A stretch of DNA of 38,092 bases from Promethearchaeota archaeon (lineage in GTDB: Archaea > Asgardarchaeota > Lokiarchaeia > Sigyniarchaeales > SOKP01). This document shows positions 14,338 through 38,092 of the stretch, piece after piece. Numbering within the stretch: the stretch's first letter is position 1; each line of letters starts with the position of its first letter. Below the pieces are notes generated by a model. The model searched no databases, was not told the DNA's origin, and saw nothing but the letters and a program-made list of their open reading frames with translations. Where the stretch lies: positions 1 to 38,092 of the forward strand of contig JAFGGO010000070.1 of assembly GCA_016930515.1 (NCBI GenBank). The letters run 5' to 3'. The translations under genes and the position numbers were made by a program.

Positions 14338-14712
14338 TTATTAATCATATTTTTTTGTGTGTTAATATGTGTAAAGGATTGGTCTTATTAAAAATTGCTT
14401 GATTGATATCAAAGTATTATTTTGACAAATTAAATAATCAAGCTTTTGAACTTGGATAATTAAAATTATTTTTTCTGATTTTACATCAACACTTTTGGAC
14501 ATCATATTATAATTCATTTAATATAGATTTATTATTTGCATGTTATTTTCATTAGGATTTGAAATTATAAAATAAGAACCCAAGCGCTTTTGAAATAACG
14601 GTAAATAATTGGACTCCTAAAAGATTTAAATAGTTTAAACGCTATGAATATACTTAATACGAAAAGAGAACATTCAATAAAAGATGCAAATTACAGTAAA
14701 AGAGTGATAGAA

Positions 14713-16536
14713 ATGTCAGACATAAGCGAGTCAGAAAGTCAAGGGAAAAAACCTATTGGTAGATTAACTGGTAAAACAACCACTCATAAAGTAAGGGTAA
14801 AGATCGACGACCCCAAAATCGAACGAACGGATTACTTCACGATTTACGGAAAAACTGAAGGTAATAATGGAGAAAAGTCGTATTACATGTTAAATATCAT
14901 TGACATGTGGACCGAAGAAAAGGGCATGATGGCAAAATTGCAAGTGCTTGGCGATAGACCAAAGCGACCCTTCGATGTGGGAGCGGATGTTTATTTAGCA
15001 ACGGAAGAGCAAATTGCAAACTTATTAGGAATTAATAATCCTCCAGAAATATCAGTAGCTATCGGCAAGCTATTAGGATATCCGTTTAATGTCAATCTAG
15101 CGGTAAAGAATTTTGGAAGGATTTTTATCACTGGAAAATCAGGTTCGGGAAAATCTTACACAATGGGTGTATTATGCGAAGAATTCCTTAAAAAAGGAAT
15201 TCCTTTAGTGATTATTGATCGACACGGTGAATACGGAAGTTTAAAAGTTGCTGCCGACGACGACGATTCGCCTTCAATATCCGAAATTGAAATCATACCT
15301 CAAGACGACGATTTTGTGGAGCTTGAAGCTTTCAAGGTTGAAGAAAAGCTCCCTCCTAAATTTTCTATTAAAGAGAAAGCAAAAGAAAAAGGAGAAGGGC
15401 CAGGTGAAAGTTCATTTGTAGACAACATCATAGAATTTGCCGACTTGAATAAGAATAGAGGGGGGGACATCGATCTAGACTATTTATTTTCTCTTGACGC
15501 AACAGATATCGTCGCTCAAAGGTTATGTACGATTGTTAACTTGAGAGGGCTTGATTTGGAAGTTCAAGAAGTCATCGCGGGCAAGCTCCTTAAGAAATTA
15601 TACGAAGCGAGCACTTCAAGAAAGATTCCTCCTTTTTACTTGTTTTTGGACGAAGCACACTTGTTTGCAGGAAAAAAACAGACAGAGACTTGTGAGATCG
15701 TGAAATTATTTGCCCAAGAAGGAAGAAAATTTGGCGCAAACATCGTAATAGGCACCCAGCGCCCTCAACTTCTCGACACTACCATTCGAGCACAAGCCGG
15801 CACATGGATCGTTATGAACTTGAGCGATGTAAGGGACATCAGTATTACAATCCAAAGCGCAGAAGACCTAAGCAATGAAAATAAGGATGATATTTCTGGC
15901 TTAGACAAGGGTGAATGCATCATATGTGGCGAAGCTGTTGCTGGAATTCCATTATTCGTAAAAGTACGAAAAAGAACAACAAAACACGGAGGGATCGGAT
16001 TTAATCCGCTCGATTTTCTTTCGGAGCAAACGATAGAAGAGCTCCTAAAGAGAAAACATCGCATATTAGGAGAAAAAACGGAAGCAGAACTCGAAGCAGG
16101 GAAAGAAGAATTTCAGGAATTAACCTCAGCAAGATCAATTTCGAGCTATTTAGATCAAATTACCGAACTCAAGGCAAGAATAAGAGAATTAGAAGAGGAA
16201 AACGAGATCCTCAAACAAGAAATACAAGCAGGTGGTTCAACCCCAATATCCATACCTCCAGGGACCGAAGGCGAGAAAATAAAAGAATTAGAAATAGAAG
16301 TGAAGGTGTGGAAGGAGAAATACAACGCTTTGAAATCAAGAAACGAAATAACCGTAAAAACGCCAACATCAGAACCTCTTGACACATTTCCTAGCTCCAA
16401 CGATAGCGAACTCGTACTAGAATTAGAAAATACGATTGCGATGTTAGAGCAAGAAGTGAAAAAATACAAGAAAAAGGCAGATGACGGCATATTATTGGCT
16501 GAAAAGCTAATGCAGGAGCTCAAGAAAAAAAAATAG
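14713..16536 (+). CDS. HerA/FtsK-superfamily (DUF87) ATPase with N-terminal HAS-barrel-like region and C-terminal coiled coil
   Basis: GKSGSGKS, IDRHGEY, LFLDEAH, EGRKFG, TQRP. ATG 14713 preferred (GAGTGA upstream); the ORF track starts at 14644. Confidence 0.85.
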   Translation: MSDISESESQGKKPIGRLTGKTTTHKVRVKIDDPKIERTDYFTIYGKTEGNNGEKSYYMLNIIDMWTEEKGMMAKLQVLGDRPKRPFDVGADVYLATEEQIANLLGINNPPEISVAIGKLLGYPFNVNLAVKNFGRIFITGKSGSGKSYTMGVLCEEFLKKGIPLVIIDRHGEYGSLKVAADDDDSPSISEIEIIPQDDDFVELEAFKVEEKLPPKFSIKEKAKEKGEGPGESSFVDNIIEFADLNKNRGGDIDLDYLFSLDATDIVAQRLCTIVNLRGLDLEVQEVIAGKLLKKLYEASTSRKIPPFYLFLDEAHLFAGKKQTETCEIVKLFAQEGRKFGANIVIGTQRPQLLDTTIRAQAGTWIVMNLSDVRDISITIQSAEDLSNENKDDISGLDKGECIICGEAVAGIPLFVKVRKRTTKHGGIGFNPLDFLSEQTIEELLKRKHRILGEKTEAELEAGKEEFQELTSARSISSYLDQITELKARIRELEEENEILKQEIQAGGSTPISIPPGTEGEKIKELEIEVKVWKEKYNALKSRNEITVKTPTSEPLDTFPSSNDSELVLELENTIAMLEQEVKKYKKKADDGILLAEKLMQELKKKK

Positions 16537-16676: not shown

Positions 16677-17702
16677 TTAGACTTTATAATGTTCTAATAA
16701 TCCTTCGAGGATCTCGTTTGCGTCAGCTATTACACAATAATCCGAAGAGTCGAAAATAGTTGCGTTAGGATCCTTGTTAATCGAAATGATCGTTTGCGAA
16801 TCGTTAATACCCACAACATGTTGAATCGCTCCCGATATTCCAAAAGCGATATAAAGTGAAGGTGTGATGGTCTCTCCGCTGATTCCTATTTGTAGATGCT
16901 CGGGCATCCAATCATCAAGAATGGGTCGTCTCGTACCACCGACTTGACCGTTTGTTAGTCGTGCCAGCTCGAATAACTTATTAAAATTTTCTTTAGAACT
17001 AAGACCGTGTCCTCCTCCGATAACAAATTTGGCATCTGACAATCGAGAAGATGGTTTATCTTTCCGCGTGGGGGTACCTACGATCTTTATCTTTATTTTG
17101 CTCTTATCGTAAGAATACTCGATTTTTTGGTGATCTATTTTCTTTTTTTTTAATATCTTTTTCTTAAATGTGCCTCGTGTCACGGTACACATTTGAGGTC
17201 TAGAGTTCGGGCAATCAATTTTCACGTGGATATTACCGCCGTAAGCAGGTTTGAAGGCCTCAGTGTTGCGAAGGTTTAACCCAAATTCTTCGCTTAATTC
17301 AAAATCCAATACATCGCTCACGAGTCCCGTCTGACATCGATAGGCAACTCGAGCGGCTAAGGCGTTTCCCGCTTCGGTTGATGGAAAAAGAAAAACTGAA
17401 GGTTTGAATTTCTCAACTAAATCAAAGACTAGATCCGTAAAAATCCGTTCGTGATAATGTTTTAAATCTGGATGGCTCATGTAAATGATCCTATCCACAC
17501 CATGTTCTTCGATTACTGGCAGGTATTGTTCGGCCTCCAATGCCATAACGATAGCCACGAGTTTTTCGTTCAGTTGGTTTGCAACTTCCCTTGCCTTTCC
17601 CAAAATTTCCAAGGCGCATTCTTCAACCCTTACATGATCCTTGATTTCGGTAAAAACCCATACATCTTTATAGTCTTTCAGATCTAACACGATTTCATTC
17701 AT
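16677..17702 (-). CDS. etfA: Electron transfer flavoprotein alpha subunit (FixB/EtfA)
   Basis: RPQMCTV, GGGHG, QIGISG, GISGAIQH, INKDPNATIF; start overlaps the etfB stop. Confidence 0.93.
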   Translation of the reverse strand: MNEIVLDLKDYKDVWVFTEIKDHVRVEECALEILGKAREVANQLNEKLVAIVMALEAEQYLPVIEEHGVDRIIYMSHPDLKHYHERIFTDLVFDLVEKFKPSVFLFPSTEAGNALAARVAYRCQTGLVSDVLDFELSEEFGLNLRNTEAFKPAYGGNIHVKIDCPNSRPQMCTVTRGTFKKKILKKKKIDHQKIEYSYDKSKIKIKIVGTPTRKDKPSSRLSDAKFVIGGGHGLSSKENFNKLFELARLTNGQVGGTRRPILDDWMPEHLQIGISGETITPSLYIAFGISGAIQHVVGINDSQTIISINKDPNATIFDSSDYCVIADANEILEGLLEHYKV

Positions 17703-18528
17703 CCTCCGCTCTTGAGTGAGAGCCCGTCCATATTCTTTCGATACCGTGCTCGGTCATAAGCTCTATTATTTTCTTAACCTTTACAGTTGTGGTTCCTTCT
17801 ATAAATGACTTCTTTCGAACAAGTTGTTCGGGTTTTTCGGTTTTAATCACTCTCGTTGGCGATTTTTTCCTTCCATCGATACAGGAAGGTGAGTTCAGGC
17901 ACCTATAATCAATAACTTCTATTTCCTTGGAATAAGCTTTCTTAATCCCTGAGAGAGACACGTGTCTGGGTTCGTTAAAATAACGATTGATTCTCAAGAG
18001 GACTGGAAGTTCTACTTCGATATTTTGACTTTCGTGCCCGAAATTTCGATGACACATCAAGAGATTATTTTTATTATCAATGTCCAAGGAAAAAATATCT
18101 GTAATGAGTGGAATCTCTAGGGCTTCAGATAATTGATATGGGACCTGTCCGGTACTTGAATCCGAGGTTTTGGTCCCTGTGATAATTATATCGTAATCTT
18201 TAATGGTATCAAAGGTCTCTTTTAACACCAAGGTCGTCTGGAGCGTGTCTGAGTACGCAAAGACTGGATCGCTGAGTAATATTGCGTGATCAACGCCCAT
18301 TGCCAAGCATTCCCTCAGGGCAGATTCGGCGTGTGGAGGGCCCATGGTTATAGCGGTGACCTGACCTCCATATTTTTCTTTCAAGCTAAGACCAAGTTCT
18401 AAACCATATAAGTCATCTTGATTAATTATGTTTTCTATACCATCTCTAATTATTGTTCCCGTAGCTCTGTTTATCTGCAGATCGTGAGTTTCGGGTACTT
18501 GTTTTATCAATACAAATATATTTATCAT
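17695..18528 (-). CDS. etfB: Electron transfer flavoprotein beta subunit (FixA/EtfB)
   Basis: IKQVPET, INQDD, TMGPP, AMGVD, DTLQT, DSSTGQVP, NEPR, SPTRV. Confidence 0.93.
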   Translation of the reverse strand: MINIFVLIKQVPETHDLQINRATGTIIRDGIENIINQDDLYGLELGLSLKEKYGGQVTAITMGPPHAESALRECLAMGVDHAILLSDPVFAYSDTLQTTLVLKETFDTIKDYDIIITGTKTSDSSTGQVPYQLSEALEIPLITDIFSLDIDNKNNLLMCHRNFGHESQNIEVELPVLLRINRYFNEPRHVSLSGIKKAYSKEIEVIDYRCLNSPSCIDGRKKSPTRVIKTEKPEQLVRKKSFIEGTTTVKVKKIIELMTEHGIERIWTGSHSRAEDE

Positions 18529-19770
18529 TTATAGATTTCCTCTTAGAATGTGCTGGGAGATAATAGATTTCATAATCTCGCTAGTTCCTTCGTAGATCTC
18601 ACATGCTTTTGCGTCCCGGTAATAACGTTCGAGGGGAAGGTCTTTCATATACCCGTATCCGCCGTGAATTTGAATAGATTCTTCAACAACTTCTCGAGCG
18701 ACCTTACTTGCGATGTATTTGCTCATTGCGGCTTCTTTTGAAAAGTTTATTCCCTTATCTCTCATAAAAGCCGTTTTCTGGATTATCAATCGGGTAGTTT
18801 CGATTTTAGTGCTCATCTCCGCCAATTTAAACGATATTGCTTGAAAGTTTGAAATGGATTTTCCAAATTGGATTCGACTGTTGGCGTAATTAACGGAATG
18901 TTCATAGGCAGCTTGGGCAATCCCTAATGATTGAGCTGCGATACCAACGCGCCCATAATCCAAGGCGTTCAATGCAATCTTAAACCCATCGGAAGGAGCT
19001 CCAAGCATATTTTCCTTTGGTACACGAATATTGTTGAAATAAATGCTTGATGTGTCGGATCCTCTCATTCCCATCTTGTCTTCTTTTTTACCAACTTCGT
19101 ATCCATCCATGTCGCTCTCGAGAATGAAGGCGGCCAAGCCTTTATCTCCGTTCTCCATTTTACATTTTGAAATTGCCAAGAGAGTCGATGCAATTCCACC
19201 ATTCGTTATGAATATTTTTGAACCATTCAATATAAACCCTTCGCCATCTTGAACGGCGAGAGAATTTATTCCTCCTGCATCAGAACCAGCGTTGGGTTCC
19301 GTTAATGCAAAAGCACATATCTTTTTACCGCAGGAAATATCGGGAAGGTATCTTTTCTTCTGCTCTTCTGTGCCCCATTTAAAAATTGGATACGCTCCTA
19401 AAGAATTGTGTGCGCTTACATTAAGCGCTGTAGAGGCGCAAATTCTAGAAATTTCTTCGATAGTAATTGCATAACTAATAGTATCTAATTCAGCACCGCC
19501 ATATTTTTCGGGTATTTGTATACCCCAAGCGTTTATCTTTGAAAGCTCTGCTGCGGTTTCCCAACTAAATCGGGCTTTTTCATCAGCGATCTTGGCGATT
19601 GGTCCAAGTACGCTCTCTGCAAAATTCCTAACGCTTTTTTTTAATAATTTGAGTTGTTCATTATATTCAAAATTTAAACTTGGCGAATAAGTAAAATCAA
19701 TTCCACGATTCGCCCTTATACCAATTGATACTCGACTAATACCATGTTTGATATCCTTGGATGCTGCCAT
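18529..19770 (-). CDS. Short/branched-chain acyl-CoA dehydrogenase
   Basis: FALTEPNAGSDA, LNGSKIFITNG, KMGMRGS, GRVGIAAQ, QIHGGYGY, IYEGTSEI; AAGGAG RBS at 19781-19786; stop abuts the etfB start. Confidence 0.93.
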   Translation of the reverse strand: MAASKDIKHGISRVSIGIRANRGIDFTYSPSLNFEYNEQLKLLKKSVRNFAESVLGPIAKIADEKARFSWETAAELSKINAWGIQIPEKYGGAELDTISYAITIEEISRICASTALNVSAHNSLGAYPIFKWGTEEQKKRYLPDISCGKKICAFALTEPNAGSDAGGINSLAVQDGEGFILNGSKIFITNGGIASTLLAISKCKMENGDKGLAAFILESDMDGYEVGKKEDKMGMRGSDTSSIYFNNIRVPKENMLGAPSDGFKIALNALDYGRVGIAAQSLGIAQAAYEHSVNYANSRIQFGKSISNFQAISFKLAEMSTKIETTRLIIQKTAFMRDKGINFSKEAAMSKYIASKVAREVVEESIQIHGGYGYMKDLPLERYYRDAKACEIYEGTSEIMKSIISQHILRGNL

Positions 19771-19778
19771 TTTTAATT

Positions 19779-19908
19779 GTCTCCTTTACATTCTATAGTA
19801 ATTGTTGCACGGGAAAGCAATTTCCATGGCTCTTTCTAATTTTTTATATCTTTGCTCCGAGAAAGCAAATCCGTTCAAAACAGAAAGAGACTTGGATGAG
19901 CTTTCTCG
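19779..19908 (-). promoter_or_regulatory. Structured leader with alternative helices (candidate attenuator / RBS-sequestering switch)
   Basis: mRNA sense: CGAGAAAGC (19908-19900) pairs perfectly with GCUUUCUCG (19866-19858). GUCUCUUU(CU) (19891-19882) can pair with either AGAAAGAG (19837-19830) or the RBS AAGGAGAC (19786-19779). A further hairpin CAUGGAAA/UUUCCCGUG lies at ~19828-19808. Confidence 0.55.
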
Positions 19909-19910
19909 TT

Positions 19911-19988
19911 TTATAATAATACTACTACCACTACATCTACTAAGGAAATCGATGATAGGGTTTTGTAGGTAGTACTATTAATAACCAT
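19911..19988 (-). CDS. Putative leader peptide MVINSTTYKTLSSISLVDVVVVVLL (25 aa)
   Basis: ATG 19988 to TAA 19911; ends TTA GTA GAT GTA GTG GTA GTA GTA TTA TTA TAA; ATG lies 26 nt below a BRE-TATA. Confidence 0.6.
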   Translation of the reverse strand: MVINSTTYKTLSSISLVDVVVVVLL

Positions 19989-20013
19989 TATAATAATACA
20001 ATAAGCGCCCTAT

Positions 20014-20028
20014 TTTATAAATTTTTCG
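20014..20028 (-). promoter_or_regulatory. Archaeal BRE + TATA promoter of the leader-ACAD-etfBA operon
   Basis: Minus strand reads CGAAAAA-TTTATAAA, a close match to the archaeal BRE/TATA consensus. Confidence 0.65.
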
Positions 20029-20153: not shown

Positions 20154-21302
20154 CTAAATATTTCCTCTAAGAATTTGTTGGGAAATGATGAGTTTCATGA
20201 TCTCGCTCGTGCCCTCATATATAGAAGTCACAATAGCGTCCCGAACATAGCGCTCGATGGGTAAGTCTTTCATATAACCGTATCCTCCGTGGATTTGAAG
20301 AGCATCTAGGGTAACCTTTTTAGCAATATCGCCAGCATAATATTTGCACATGGCAGATTCCTTGGAAAAGCGTTCCTTTGTGTCTTTCGCATGAGCCGCT
20401 CGATACACCAGAAGCCTGGCAGCGTCTACTTCAGTCGCCATCTCAGCCAGCTTGAACGATACTCCTTGGAACGAGGATATTGGCTTTTTAAATTGCACTC
20501 TCCCTTTTGCATATTCCACCGAATGCTCGAGTGCGGCTTGAGCAATGCCCAACGCTTGGGCAGCTATACCGATTCGCCCAACATCAAGAGTGTGCATTGC
20601 TATCTTGAATCCATCAGATTCTTTTCCCAATATATTTTCTTTTGGTATTCTAACATCATTGAAATACAAGCTCGTCGTTAAGTTGCTCCTAACACCTAGT
20701 TTGTCTTCTTTCTTTCCAATCTCGTAACCCTTCATATCTTTTTCGACAAGTATTGCGGCCATCCCAGTTTCGCCGTTTTTTTTTTTATATTTAGTTCCAA
20801 CAAGTAAGACTGAAGCAACACCACCATTTGTGACGAATATTTTTGAACCGTTCAGAATATAATCATTCTCGTCTTCGATCGCCATACATTCAATACCAGC
20901 AGCATCAGAACCAGCGTTTGGTTCCGTCCATGTGAATCCTGTTATCTTTTTTCCAGAAGCAATGTCGTACAAGAATCTTTCTTTTTGGTCTTCCGTACCC
21001 CATTTCAAGATAGGATAAGCTCCAACTGAATTGTGCACTGTCAAGCCCAATCCAGTTGCCCCGCACACTCGTGAAATCTCTTCAATGGTAATAGCATAGC
21101 TAATGGAATCTAAATCGGCACCGCCATATTTTTCGGGTAGTTGAATTCCCCAGGCATTTATTTTCGAAAGCTCATTTGCTGCTTCCCAAGAGAATATTGC
21201 GTCTCTATCTACAGATGAGGCTAAGGGACCGAGAACGTCCTCAGAAAAAGCTCTCACGCTGTTTCTTACCAACTTTTGCTTTTCTGTAAGTTCAAAATTC
21301 AA
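20154..21302 (-). CDS. Short/branched-chain acyl-CoA dehydrogenase (paralog of 18529-19770)
   Basis: TEPNAGSDA, LNGSKIFVTNG, GRIGIAAQ, QIHGGYGY, IYEGTSEI; TTG start about 22 nt below a TATA-like tract (probably leaderless). Confidence 0.93.
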   Translation of the reverse strand: MNFELTEKQKLVRNSVRAFSEDVLGPLASSVDRDAIFSWEAANELSKINAWGIQLPEKYGGADLDSISYAITIEEISRVCGATGLGLTVHNSVGAYPILKWGTEDQKERFLYDIASGKKITGFTWTEPNAGSDAAGIECMAIEDENDYILNGSKIFVTNGGVASVLLVGTKYKKKNGETGMAAILVEKDMKGYEIGKKEDKLGVRSNLTTSLYFNDVRIPKENILGKESDGFKIAMHTLDVGRIGIAAQALGIAQAALEHSVEYAKGRVQFKKPISSFQGVSFKLAEMATEVDAARLLVYRAAHAKDTKERFSKESAMCKYYAGDIAKKVTLDALQIHGGYGYMKDLPIERYVRDAIVTSIYEGTSEIMKLIISQQILRGNI

Positions 21303-21458: not shown

Positions 21459-21887
21459 ATGACTGAAATTACTACTACGATAAACAGCGAAGCACCAGAC
21501 ACCACGCTTGGACAAAAGAATAAGAGAATAAAGGGAATTCTTAGTGCTATTGTGTATGCATTAACTGCCGCAGCATACATTGTCATTCCTACAAAATTAA
21601 TATCAAATTACTGGATGTGGCTTAACGAGTTTAATATTAACGGAAAGCCCGTTTACACATTAGCTCTTCTAATGCTATTCTTGTATATAATTACCTGGGT
21701 TATCGCCGTAGTCTATATCGCAGCAACAGTTCGAGCCATTGTTCAAGGAAAAAACTCCGATTTGGGTATCTCTAAAGGGATTCAGTGGTTTGGAGCGATT
21801 TCCACGGCATTTATGGCCTGTTTCTTTATATTATGGTTTGTATTAACCGGTGGTCAGATTGCAATATTTTCACTAACACCTCCGTAA
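21459..21887 (+). CDS. Hypothetical membrane protein (3 TM)
   Basis: Three hydrophobic helices; no recognised family. Confidence 0.6.
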   Translation: MTEITTTINSEAPDTTLGQKNKRIKGILSAIVYALTAAAYIVIPTKLISNYWMWLNEFNINGKPVYTLALLMLFLYIITWVIAVVYIAATVRAIVQGKNSDLGISKGIQWFGAISTAFMACFFILWFVLTGGQIAIFSLTPP

Positions 21888-35882: not shown

Positions 35883-36797
35883 TTAGTATCCCTTGTATTT
35901 GGGAGTGTCGCGGACTTTCTTTGCTCCTTTACATACGGGACAAGTTGAACCGTCGTCGAGAGATCCCTTTCCGCCGCATTTAGGACACGCCACGCGCCTG
36001 TTAAATGCGTTAATTCCTTCCATGACATCAGAAGAAGCGCTATTGAGGCCAAATCCAATTTGTTCGAAGTTCAAACCAACAGAGAGAGCAGATTGCGTTC
36101 CGAACTTGACGGCTTTTTTAATGATCATCAAGCTCGTCGTTGGAAGCGCTCCAAGCATTTTGGCTTTTTGGTGGACAACTTTCTCGAATTCTTCTCCAGG
36201 TTCTGTCAAATAGGACACATAACCCCATTCGTGCATCTTTTGCGCAGGAACATTTTCTCCAAAATAGATCATGTTCATGACTCTCGCTTGTCCGAGGTGC
36301 CTGATCATTCTTTGAGTTCCACCATTTGCAGGGAAAATACCCCTGTGAATTTCTGGAAAGCCAAAAACGGCTCGATTCGTTGCGATAATGATATCGCAAA
36401 CCAAGGTCAATTCGCACCCACCACCAAGGGCAAATCCGTCAACAGCAGCGATGATTGGCTTTGGAAAGGCATCAATGATGTTGTAATATCTGAGTTTTTG
36501 CTGCATTGACAACATCATGTCGCTCACGATGTTTGGTTGTATGCCCTCCCCGAACCCTCCAACTAAATCTGCTCCAGCAGAAAAAGCGGGTTTTTTTGTA
36601 AAGTCTTTCGTACCTCGAAGAACGACGCAACGAACTGACTTATCAACTTCCAATTTTTCGAGCGCCATATGGATCTCTTTTACGGTTTTTGTCTGCAAGG
36701 CGTTTAACATGTCAGGTCGGTTCAGTTCAATGACAGCGTAATTCCCATCAATACCATCTTTCGGTAAGGTAACTTTTATATGTTCGTATTCAACCAT
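35883..36797 (-). CDS. Enoyl-CoA hydratase/crotonase with C-terminal zinc-ribbon insertion
   Basis: LNRPDMLNAL, FSAGADL, PKPIIAAVDGFALGGGCEL, FGFPE (both catalytic Glu present). Confidence 0.92.
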   Translation of the reverse strand: MVEYEHIKVTLPKDGIDGNYAVIELNRPDMLNALQTKTVKEIHMALEKLEVDKSVRCVVLRGTKDFTKKPAFSAGADLVGGFGEGIQPNIVSDMMLSMQQKLRYYNIIDAFPKPIIAAVDGFALGGGCELTLVCDIIIATNRAVFGFPEIHRGIFPANGGTQRMIRHLGQARVMNMIYFGENVPAQKMHEWGYVSYLTEPGEEFEKVVHQKAKMLGALPTTSLMIIKKAVKFGTQSALSVGLNFEQIGFGLNSASSDVMEGINAFNRRVACPKCGGKGSLDDGSTCPVCKGAKKVRDTPKYKGY

Positions 36798-37001: not shown

Positions 37002-38092
37002 TTATTTTTTCATTTCGATGAATTTTCCAGATTTCATGAGATCGACAGGTCTAAGGTATTCTTTTTTGGTTTGATCGGCTAATTTTTCTAATATGCTTGA
37101 CCAAGCCTCGTAATTTTTAACACCCATCGAGAAAGGTCCTGGTACATTCATTCCCGCCATGTTTGCGTCGTCAATTACCTTGTATCCGCTCGCAATCCCC
37201 TCTTCGAGGATGCGACAGCCCTCGTTCAACATGATGGCAAATGTTGTTGTGAGATCGAAAATCCCAGCAGGTTCTGCCTCTTTAATGCTCGCCATGATGG
37301 CGTCTCGACCCATATTCCAATCGTATAAGCCTAATTTGTTTCCTTTATTTCCCAAATTTCCTTTAGCATATAAATCTTTTATAACCTTGCCAGGCTCAAA
37401 ATCAGAGGATAAGGTTTTCTTATAATATTCCATAATATGTACCGTTGTATCAATACCAACGAAGTCTGTTAAGACACATGGTGGCATGGGTGCCTTTCCA
37501 CCCGTATCTGCATCGATCTGTGCAGGAGTCTTACCTTCTTCAGTAGCCTTATCAATCACCCAATTGAGGTAAATCTGAATAGGGGCGTTTAACCTATTCA
37601 CGATGAATCCTGGGCGATCCTTCAAGACTTTAGCAATGTATCGTTTTCCCTTCAGACAAGGAAGTTTTTGGCACACGTCCATTGCAATTTCCATCGTGTT
37701 TTCGGAAGTGTTATCGCTTTTTATGACCTCGATCAACCGCATCAAGGGTACAGGGTTGAAGAAGTGAATTCCGCACACTCTATCAGGAGCACCACAATCC
37801 TTTCCAATTTCGGTGATGCTCATTGTTGAAGTGTTAGAGCCAAAGATAACATGAGATGGCCCATTTTCAATCACGGTTTTTGCGACATCTTTTTTGATAT
37901 CCATCTTCTCAATTACCGCTTCGATAACCATATCAACATCTTTTACGGCAGTTGCTAAATTTATCGATTTAGAACATTTTGATAAGAGAGAATCTGCAGA
38001 GGCTTCTCCTAAAGCGCCCTTTTCTTCGAGTTTTTTCAGGCCTGCTGCGATGCCTTTATATCCGTTGTCAACGAACTCGTCTTTGATGTCCA
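37002..38092 (-). CDS. 3-hydroxyacyl-CoA dehydrogenase (5'-truncated by window edge; duplicated C-terminal domain)
   Basis: Frame open from the window end (DIKDEFVDNGYKGI...KDVDMVIEAVIE); SNTS, GIHFFNP, PGFIVNR, second LNEGCRILEEG domain. Confidence 0.92.
   Translation of the reverse strand, partial: DIKDEFVDNGYKGIAAGLKKLEEKGALGEASADSLLSKCSKSINLATAVKDVDMVIEAVIEKMDIKKDVAKTVIENGPSHVIFGSNTSTMSITEIGKDCGAPDRVCGIHFFNPVPLMRLIEVIKSDNTSENTMEIAMDVCQKLPCLKGKRYIAKVLKDRPGFIVNRLNAPIQIYLNWVIDKATEEGKTPAQIDADTGGKAPMPPCVLTDFVGIDTTVHIMEYYKKTLSSDFEPGKVIKDLYAKGNLGNKGNKLGLYDWNMGRDAIMASIKEAEPAGIFDLTTTFAIMLNEGCRILEEGIASGYKVIDDANMAGMNVPGPFSMGVKNYEAWSSILEKLADQTKKEYLRPVDLMKSGKFIEMKK

Follow-up and report, generated by a model that had tools for sequence, protein, structure and literature searches.

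The 38,092-nt stretch of Lokiarchaeia DNA analysed here (the window) carries an operon, ACAD2-etfB-etfA, preceded by a short ORF that ends in a run of valine and leucine codons, which raises the question of what this ORF is read for and in which direction the operon responds. As judged from comparison of sequences, the best explanation overall (probability about 0.6) is a leader acting as a ribosome-read Val/Leu gauge on an operon that would feed branched-chain synthesis and would be on in starvation. An earlier interpretation of this DNA, made from its letters alone (the sequence-only reading), had described the ORF as a 25-codon uORF rich in V/L/I and GTA codons with a Val/Leu ending, and all of these features are present: 13 of the 25 codons are V/L/I, five are GTA, and the C-terminus reads L-V-D-V-V-V-V-V-L-L-stop. 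The BRE-TATA that it placed upstream was found as well (Table 1), and the start of the ACAD2 gene lies 140 nt 3' of the ORF. Since a TATA-like word begins 29-35 nt 5' of the ATG in 33 of 36 homologs, transcription probably starts 0-5 nt 5' of the ATG, and the leader mRNA would be leaderless or nearly so, as had been supposed.

Table 1. Features of the leader and of the adjoining genes, in window positions.
Feature	Position	Strand	Basis or remark
BRE + TATA of the leader	20014..20028 (BRE 20028-20022, TATA 20021-20014)	-	25 nt 5' of the ATG
Leader ORF, 25 codons, Val/Leu run at its end	19911..19988	-	sequence; conserved in homologs
Hairpin in the ORF, 5' arm (N-N/S-T-T codons)	19965..19984	-	pairs with the run in 33/37; cognate preference
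Hairpin in the ORF, 3' arm (the Val/Leu run itself)	19914..19934	-	pairing tests in homologs
Arm A, begins 2 nt after the stop; partner C or E	19894..19908	-	A:C 37/37 and A:E 27/37 against shuffles
Pyrimidine tract B (partner D)	19882..19891	-	pairing tests; partly circular for pattern-derived matches
Arm C (19872-19858), with a small hairpin of its own with 19858-19851	19851..19872	-	pairing, folding
Purine tract D (partner B)	19830..19837	-	pairing tests
Element E, partner of A (RBS then open) or of the RBS region (RBS then closed)	19810..19826	-	E:RBS 15/37
RBS of the ACAD2 gene	19779..19786	-	sequence
ACAD2, butyryl-CoA dehydrogenase-like paralog, 30-aa N-terminal extension	18529..19770	-
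etfB, nearest to bifurcating ETFs, nucleotide-site motifs altered	17695..18528	-
etfA	16677..17702	-
ACAD1, ancestral copy, 64% identical to ACAD2, without leader	20154..21302	-	upstream of the leader

When the 3456 small ORFs that precede genes of this genome were ranked by terminal amino-acid enrichment, the leader ORF took the fifth place, and eight of the 14 top-ranked ORFs were found before genes of the cognate amino acid's metabolism (mutase, 2-oxoacid:ferredoxin oxidoreductase, ACAD2, trpD, cimA, trpE, ilvE and leuA). The leader is kept before the same ACAD paralog in nine Lokiarchaeia loci; by protein homology alone it is conserved in four related genomes (three of the same genus, one of another), and it occurs in four metagenome loci as well. 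An RNA model built from 13 leaders matches 87 of the 135 genomes of the family, nearly all inspected matches having a mini-ORF with a hydrophobic terminal run, while Rfam returned chance matches only for the leader. In the homologs the ATG, the frame and the stop are retained at an ORF length of 22-30 codons, the V/L/I share of the last five codons is 95-100% (37 homologs), and GTA (81) and TTA (55) are the commonest among about 184 run codons. In the Val/Leu/Ile and Leu leader classes the density of cognate codons peaks in the last five positions, and the hairpin starts at most about 9 nt from the stop. By these comparisons the element is a real, conserved regulatory element. The core of the sequence-only reading, a conserved Val/Leu leader ORF with mutually exclusive helices before ACAD-etfB-etfA in Lokiarchaeia, is thereby upheld, as is the conservation in relatives that it had named as a check, where the run and A:C and, in most homologs, A:E and B:D are kept. 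Two other sites of this genome are probably not leaders: a trinucleotide repeat (G000:C106:14995-15105) translates as poly-Leu or poly-Ile, depending on the strand, and is probably a microsatellite, and a small ORF that ends in Trp ahead of a membrane-protein gene (G000:C17:3779-3844) overlaps an opposite-strand gene and is probably due to chance.

The helices were assessed by per-sequence duplex and cross-pairing tests, as RNAalifold on MAFFT alignments overlooked A:C owing to its bulges. Among 37 leaders, pairing exceeded that of shuffled sequences for the ORF self-fold in 33, A:C in 37, A:E in 27, B:D in 24, E:RBS in 15 and B:RBS in 5, counts that ignore kinship among the leaders and are partly circular for B:D, some matches being derived from the pattern. 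When each element was paired with the partners of other leaders, a comparison equally blind to kinship, the ORF hairpin, A:C, A:E, B:D and E:RBS all preferred their own partner; the cognate minus non-cognate pairing energy was -5.1 kcal/mol for A:C, -3.5 for A:E and -2.3 for E:RBS. The 9-bp arm of the sequence-only reading exists, beginning 2 nt past the stop (19908) and pairing with 19866-19858, and the positions that it gave for tract B, tract D and the RBS stand as well; the switch that it built upon them does not. Its anti-RBS helix, B:RBS, passed the shuffle test in 1 of 13 and in the above 5 of 37 homologs, had no cognate preference (p 0.21) and gave a forced fold of -23.1 versus -32.7 kcal/mol, and it was therefore rejected; the element that can close the RBS is E, freed by A:C. 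Nor is D a decoy, because the B:D helix is present in both folds, as a pseudoknot when A:C is present and nested when A:E is, which makes D a core partner; tracts B and D are nearly invariant among the homologs. That reading lacked both element E (19826-19810) and the self-pairing of the ORF (19984-19965 with 19934-19914). A D:E hairpin, also considered, was supported in 1 of 13 homologs.

The conserved helices thus arrange themselves into two states. In state I, A:C coexists with the B:D pseudoknot and E is free to close the RBS; in state II, B:D and A:E form a single rod and the RBS is open. The predicted energies of the two in the window are close, -35.2 kcal/mol for state I (the B:D pseudoknot not counted) and -36.4 kcal/mol for state II, and as the transcript grows A:C is the earliest helix predicted to form. 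Opening of the RBS would cost 8.7 kcal/mol in state I versus 2.3 in state II, and state I has the more closed RBS in 24 of the 37 leaders, so that a switch of the RBS through E is plausible as modelled. RBS closing is predicted for the window leader, though not for the four LeuRS leaders tested nor for most leuA leaders, and the failure of the latter led us to discard RBS occlusion as a universal output. Because E:RBS is significant in just two of nine ACAD leaders and in none of the four LeuRS leaders tested, the output step through E:RBS appears not to be universal, and a share of it may fall to polar termination or decay. For the simple leaders of cimA, the oxidoreductase and the mutase (two oxidoreductase rows with wrong start codons being excluded from the comparison), the predicted folds have A:C opening the RBS, contrary to the present scaffold. 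Leaders L391 (G123) and L395 (G119) are devoid of the inner half of arm C and represent a natural deletion variant.

The same RNA stands before other genes, and its run changes with them: V52/L26% before ACAD, L65/V5% before LeuRS, and Ala-rich before ilvE. It precedes at least 21 archaeal-type LeuRS genes with a Leu run (the second LeuRS copy in the four genomes tested), two housekeeping-type LeuRS genes, likewise with a Leu run, five ilvE genes with Ala/Val/Leu runs, and seven FrhB-TrmB fusions with Ile/Val runs, as well as small genes. The ilvE leader of this genome (L037, G000:C175:36075-36188) is Ala-rich with apparently the same A-B-C-D-E layout, and five orthologs were matched by the model. 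The scaffold also occurs in leuA-negative genera. Simpler, one-hairpin cognate leaders precede leuA in 17/17 genomes of the family, the trp operon in 17/17 readable loci, cimA in 10/11 (in G008, which has cimA, the leader was not found) and true ilvB in 6/6 cases where it is the first gene. In the cimA leaders (L033, L266-L276) a conserved I-I-P close to the start and a conserved G-I-I close to the end make up the ORF hairpin in 11 of 13, and leaders without an ORF hairpin (oxidoreductase 0/17, leuA 1/21) still have the run.

Several observations on these loci are recorded here in their own right. Genomes G108, G117, G128 and G057 have both bacterial-type and archaeal-type LeuRS, and the genome of the window the bacterial type only. 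The fusions, 474-489 aa long, combine a ferredoxin, an F420-binding FrhB domain and a TrmB helix-turn-helix (L434:391-1812 and L437:389-1840, genera g2 and g11). The commonest gene behind the RNA encodes a conserved protein of 45-68 aa of no known family, in two subfamilies (L320:1931-2068, L377, L380, L415 and others), which was not found in the genome of the window; a 45-codon downstream ORF that had been taken for an ACAD remnant is in fact this conserved small gene. One leader subfamily (L407, L411, L416, L431, L440-L445) ends in 3-4 Val/Thr/Leu codons after K-R-A-x-I-P, two of its members end in I-I-K-R-E, and some stand in tandem.

As for the regulated operon, ACAD2 is closest among solved structures to the butyryl-CoA dehydrogenase of C. 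difficile (5OL2, 382 bits) and not to either branched-chain subfamily, scoring 281 bits against the human short/branched-chain enzyme (2JIF; SBCAD) and 218 bits against isobutyryl-CoA dehydrogenase (1RX0; ACAD8); the YEG motif, from which a branched-chain substrate had been argued, is not diagnostic. The adjacent ETF genes are closest to bifurcating ETFs, as ACAD2 is to Bcd. At the bifurcation-site motifs EtfA has Lys in place of Arg, and two motifs of EtfB show conserved changes; these altered nucleotide-site motifs are common to all orthologous ETFs, which suggests from the sequences a distinct ETF subtype. The ancestral layout is ACAD1-etfB-etfA with no leader, the leader and ACAD2 being inserted in part of the genus and in G014; since the extra N-terminus of ACAD2 resembles, by eye, the start of the small gene usually behind the scaffold, the sequences suggest that leader and ACAD2 are a captured cassette. 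About 15 kb 5' of the two ACADs, and on their strand, the window encodes a crotonase and a 3-hydroxybutyryl-CoA dehydrogenase (35883-36797 and 37002-37931), and thiolases are present in this genome. Beside ACAD1 a small protein, membrane-like and without a Pfam family (21459-21887), is encoded divergently in all inspected relatives, and a HerA-like ATPase (14644-16536) is convergent with etfA in most of them.

The metabolic setting of the operon was deduced from the distribution of the genes. IlvD, IlvC and AHAS gave no match in this genome (94% complete), in G008 (98%) or in G020 (100%), all three of which have leuA and cimA; AHAS exceeds the cut-off only in other families of the order (8/41), where the Val/Leu/Ile leader is on ilvB. 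In the family of the window this leader is on a 2-oxoacid:ferredoxin oxidoreductase, in 17/17 leuA-positive and 0/8 leuA-negative genomes and, in ten further ones, in 5/5 versus 0/5 (total agreement 35/35); the leader state of the oxidoreductase changes four times on the protein tree, and 19 of 2000 shuffles give four or fewer changes. The enzyme scores about equally as pyruvate- and ketoisovalerate-type. Orthologous etfB is found in 15/17 leuA-positive versus 0/8 leuA-negative genomes, and the ACAD-ETF module occurs only in leuA-bearing genomes. A further Val/Leu/Ile leader precedes a mutase (contig C61) that by alignment has Phe and Gln at the positions of Tyr89 and Arg207 of methylmalonyl-CoA mutase, which we take to be isobutyryl-CoA mutase residues; the mutase ortholog occurs in leuA-negative genomes too, and the leader is on ACAD in six and on the mutase in five leuA-positive genomes, that is, in a subset only. 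To speak of a family without any IlvC would be too strong, since a divergent IlvC-like protein of 360-390 aa (examples L090-L098) passes just over the ilvC cut-off in 59 of the 135 family genomes (70 by another count), mostly of leuA-negative genera and also in the leuA-positive G005, G007 and G019.

These distributions bring forward a reverse-catabolic synthesis of branched-chain amino acids in this lineage, to which we give an even chance. Crotonyl-CoA would be reduced to butyryl-CoA by ACAD-ETF, converted to isobutyryl-CoA by the mutase and reductively carboxylated to 2-ketoisovalerate by the oxidoreductase, followed by IlvE and LeuA; Ile would be reached in parallel from citramalate. It is a tentative proposal, held at somewhat below even, that the ribosome-read regulon of pseudoknot/rod leaders exposes a de novo Val/Leu/Ile route needing no acetolactate synthase; a literature search covering few subscription journals found no report of such a pathway. 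Counting against the reverse route are the altered ETF motifs, the ambiguous type of the oxidoreductase, the divergent IlvC-like protein so common in the family and the mutase ortholog in leuA-negative genomes; prototrophs too could need catabolism shut off in starvation.

The mechanism may be envisaged as follows. It is very probably the ribosome on the last codons that determines whether A:C exists. In plenty, charged tRNA-Val and tRNA-Leu would let the ribosome depart fast, A:C would form first and ACAD2-etfB-etfA would be off, with the RBS closed and probably polar termination following; in starvation the ribosome would dwell on the last codons, A:C would be blocked or melted, and the open state would result. 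Whether the induced operon would then feed branched-chain synthesis in a lineage without ilvB, ilvC and ilvD is evenly balanced in our judgement. Archaeal polarity is attributed to FttA, and coupling fades beyond about 30 nt (PMC12548453); as 140 nt separate leader and gene here, re-initiation by the leader ribosome is unlikely.

The structure alone leaves the sign unfixed, because terminating and stalled ribosomes can both cover arm A. With the Haloferax ribosome footprint (PMC7261190), the cover of arm A would be 7-8 nt at the stop versus 4-5 nt when stalled on the last Leu, and this greater cover at the stop favours, as modelled, a timing scheme of the opposite sign, a rival that we consider unlikely overall though by no means negligible. 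According to it, in plenty the coupled ribosome would wait at the stop during synthesis of C, which would fold upon itself, A:E would form later and the RBS would be open, and in starvation a lagging ribosome would let A:C and E:RBS form and switch the operon off, ACAD2-ETF being then a catabolic branched-chain acyl-CoA dehydrogenase. Every conserved helix finds a use in this scheme, the near-equal energies of the two states, the early formation of A:C and the cover of most of A by a terminating ribosome accord with it, and so do the closing of the RBS by state I in most leaders, the opposite behaviour of the simple biosynthetic leaders and the presence of the scaffold in leuA-negative genera. 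It would, however, render LeuRS, the housekeeping type included, leucine-induced, and the ACAD-ETF module is absent from all eight leuA-negative genomes, which should need catabolism most; the affinity of ACAD2 to butyryl-CoA dehydrogenases and the concentration of conserved cognate codons in the last five positions also stand against it. In the systems known (pheST, T-box), starvation induces the synthetases. Because the same scaffold precedes LeuRS and ilvE, and cognate leaders precede leuA, cimA, trp and ilvB, the 'on in starvation' sign is favoured and appears rather likely. The catabolic logic of opposite sign proposed by the sequence-only reading is accordingly disfavoured, considering the LeuRS copies and the restriction of ACAD-ETF to leuA-bearing genomes.

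Two further explanations concern what the gauge serves and whether it is one. It is improbable that a starvation-on gauge serves salvage only, of external isobutyrate, isovalerate or 2-methylbutyrate or by interconversion of Val/Leu/Ile, rather than synthesis de novo from acetyl-CoA: rumen methanogens do draw on branched fatty acids when making Ile and Leu (PMC10658910), the motifs of the ETF deviate and just a subset of leuA-positive genomes has the leader on ACAD or the mutase, but the Ile leader on citramalate synthase in genomes without an AHAS match implies a de novo Ile route, and salvage of branched acids would need neither ACAD nor mutase under leader control. That the ORF is a by-product, selection acting upon the fold of an RNA that binds a protein or works like a riboswitch and the run being just the 3' arm of a hairpin, seems most improbable. 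The run does pair with the 5' end of its ORF in 33 of 37 homologs, GTA and TTA do dominate it and B and D are nearly invariant, all of which would suit such a leader, yet start codon, frame and stop persist at an ORF length of 22-30 codons, the run residue changes with the target gene on one and the same scaffold, and the oxidoreductase and leuA leaders keep the run while mostly or wholly devoid of the ORF hairpin.

Most likely, then, a ribosome-read amino-acid gauge, a type of control known from bacteria, operates here in an Asgard archaeon; a literature search, in which few subscription journals were covered, turned up no description of leader-peptide attenuation for archaea. In Methanothermobacter, trp regulation may involve a leader with a two-codon Trp mini-ORF. 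If true, a covarying switch before many cognate genes of Asgard archaea would demonstrate that leader-peptide control can operate on archaeal ribosomes and a Pol II-like polymerase, and this in the prokaryotes most closely related to eukaryotes; the leader would also offer a short, portable test of transcription-translation coupling. Such leaders would also annotate metabolism by marking the enzymes that answer to Val/Leu/Ile, and in lineages without ilvB, ilvC and ilvD they would hint at a catabolic route run in reverse, so that auxotrophy would be read differently from Asgard genomes.

Among known systems, the route proposed de novo here would combine Bcd-EtfAB, isobutyryl-CoA mutase and methanogen-type reductive carboxylation of branched acyl-CoAs. 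The nearest solved relatives of ACAD2 and its ETF are the clostridial Bcd-EtfAB (PDB 5OL2, 4L1F/4KPU), from which the ETF differs in its nucleotide-site motifs, and the leader-bearing mutase shares the ICM-type active-site residues by alignment. As regards the leader, E. coli pheM-pheST resembles the LeuRS copies of the present scaffold in that cognate codons are read in a leader ahead of an aminoacyl-tRNA synthetase; its output is an intrinsic terminator and its RNA unrelated. With the enterobacterial ilvL-ilvGMEDA, ivbL-ilvBN and leuL and the corynebacterial branched-chain leader-peptide attenuator of C. glutamicum ilvBNC (PMC11857589) the window leader shares a short Val/Leu(/Ile) ORF, mutually exclusive helices and a place on amino-acid operons. 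Unlike these bacterial attenuators, it has an archaeal TATA promoter, is near-leaderless, has a run abutting the stop and would switch between pseudoknot and rod; there is no hairpin with a U-tract, the T4 tracts lying within a loop 20-40 nt past the stop, and no 1:2 helix, the 3' end of the ORF pairing with arm A in 0/37 leaders and the ORF pairing with itself instead. The mycobacterial leaderless polycysteine short ORFs, in which the run pairs with the RBS and translational attenuation has been proposed (bioRxiv 10.1101/834739), resemble it in the leaderless ORF, the 3' run, the proposed control through RBS access and the multi-locus ribosome-read regulon, and differ in the amino acids read, in the host, which is archaeal here, and in the relay of A, C and E that stands here between run and RBS. 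As there is no terminator, no 1:2 helix and no pairing of the run with the RBS, the leader is a member of neither class, and it is the mycobacterial polycysteine type with which it shares most of its geometry.
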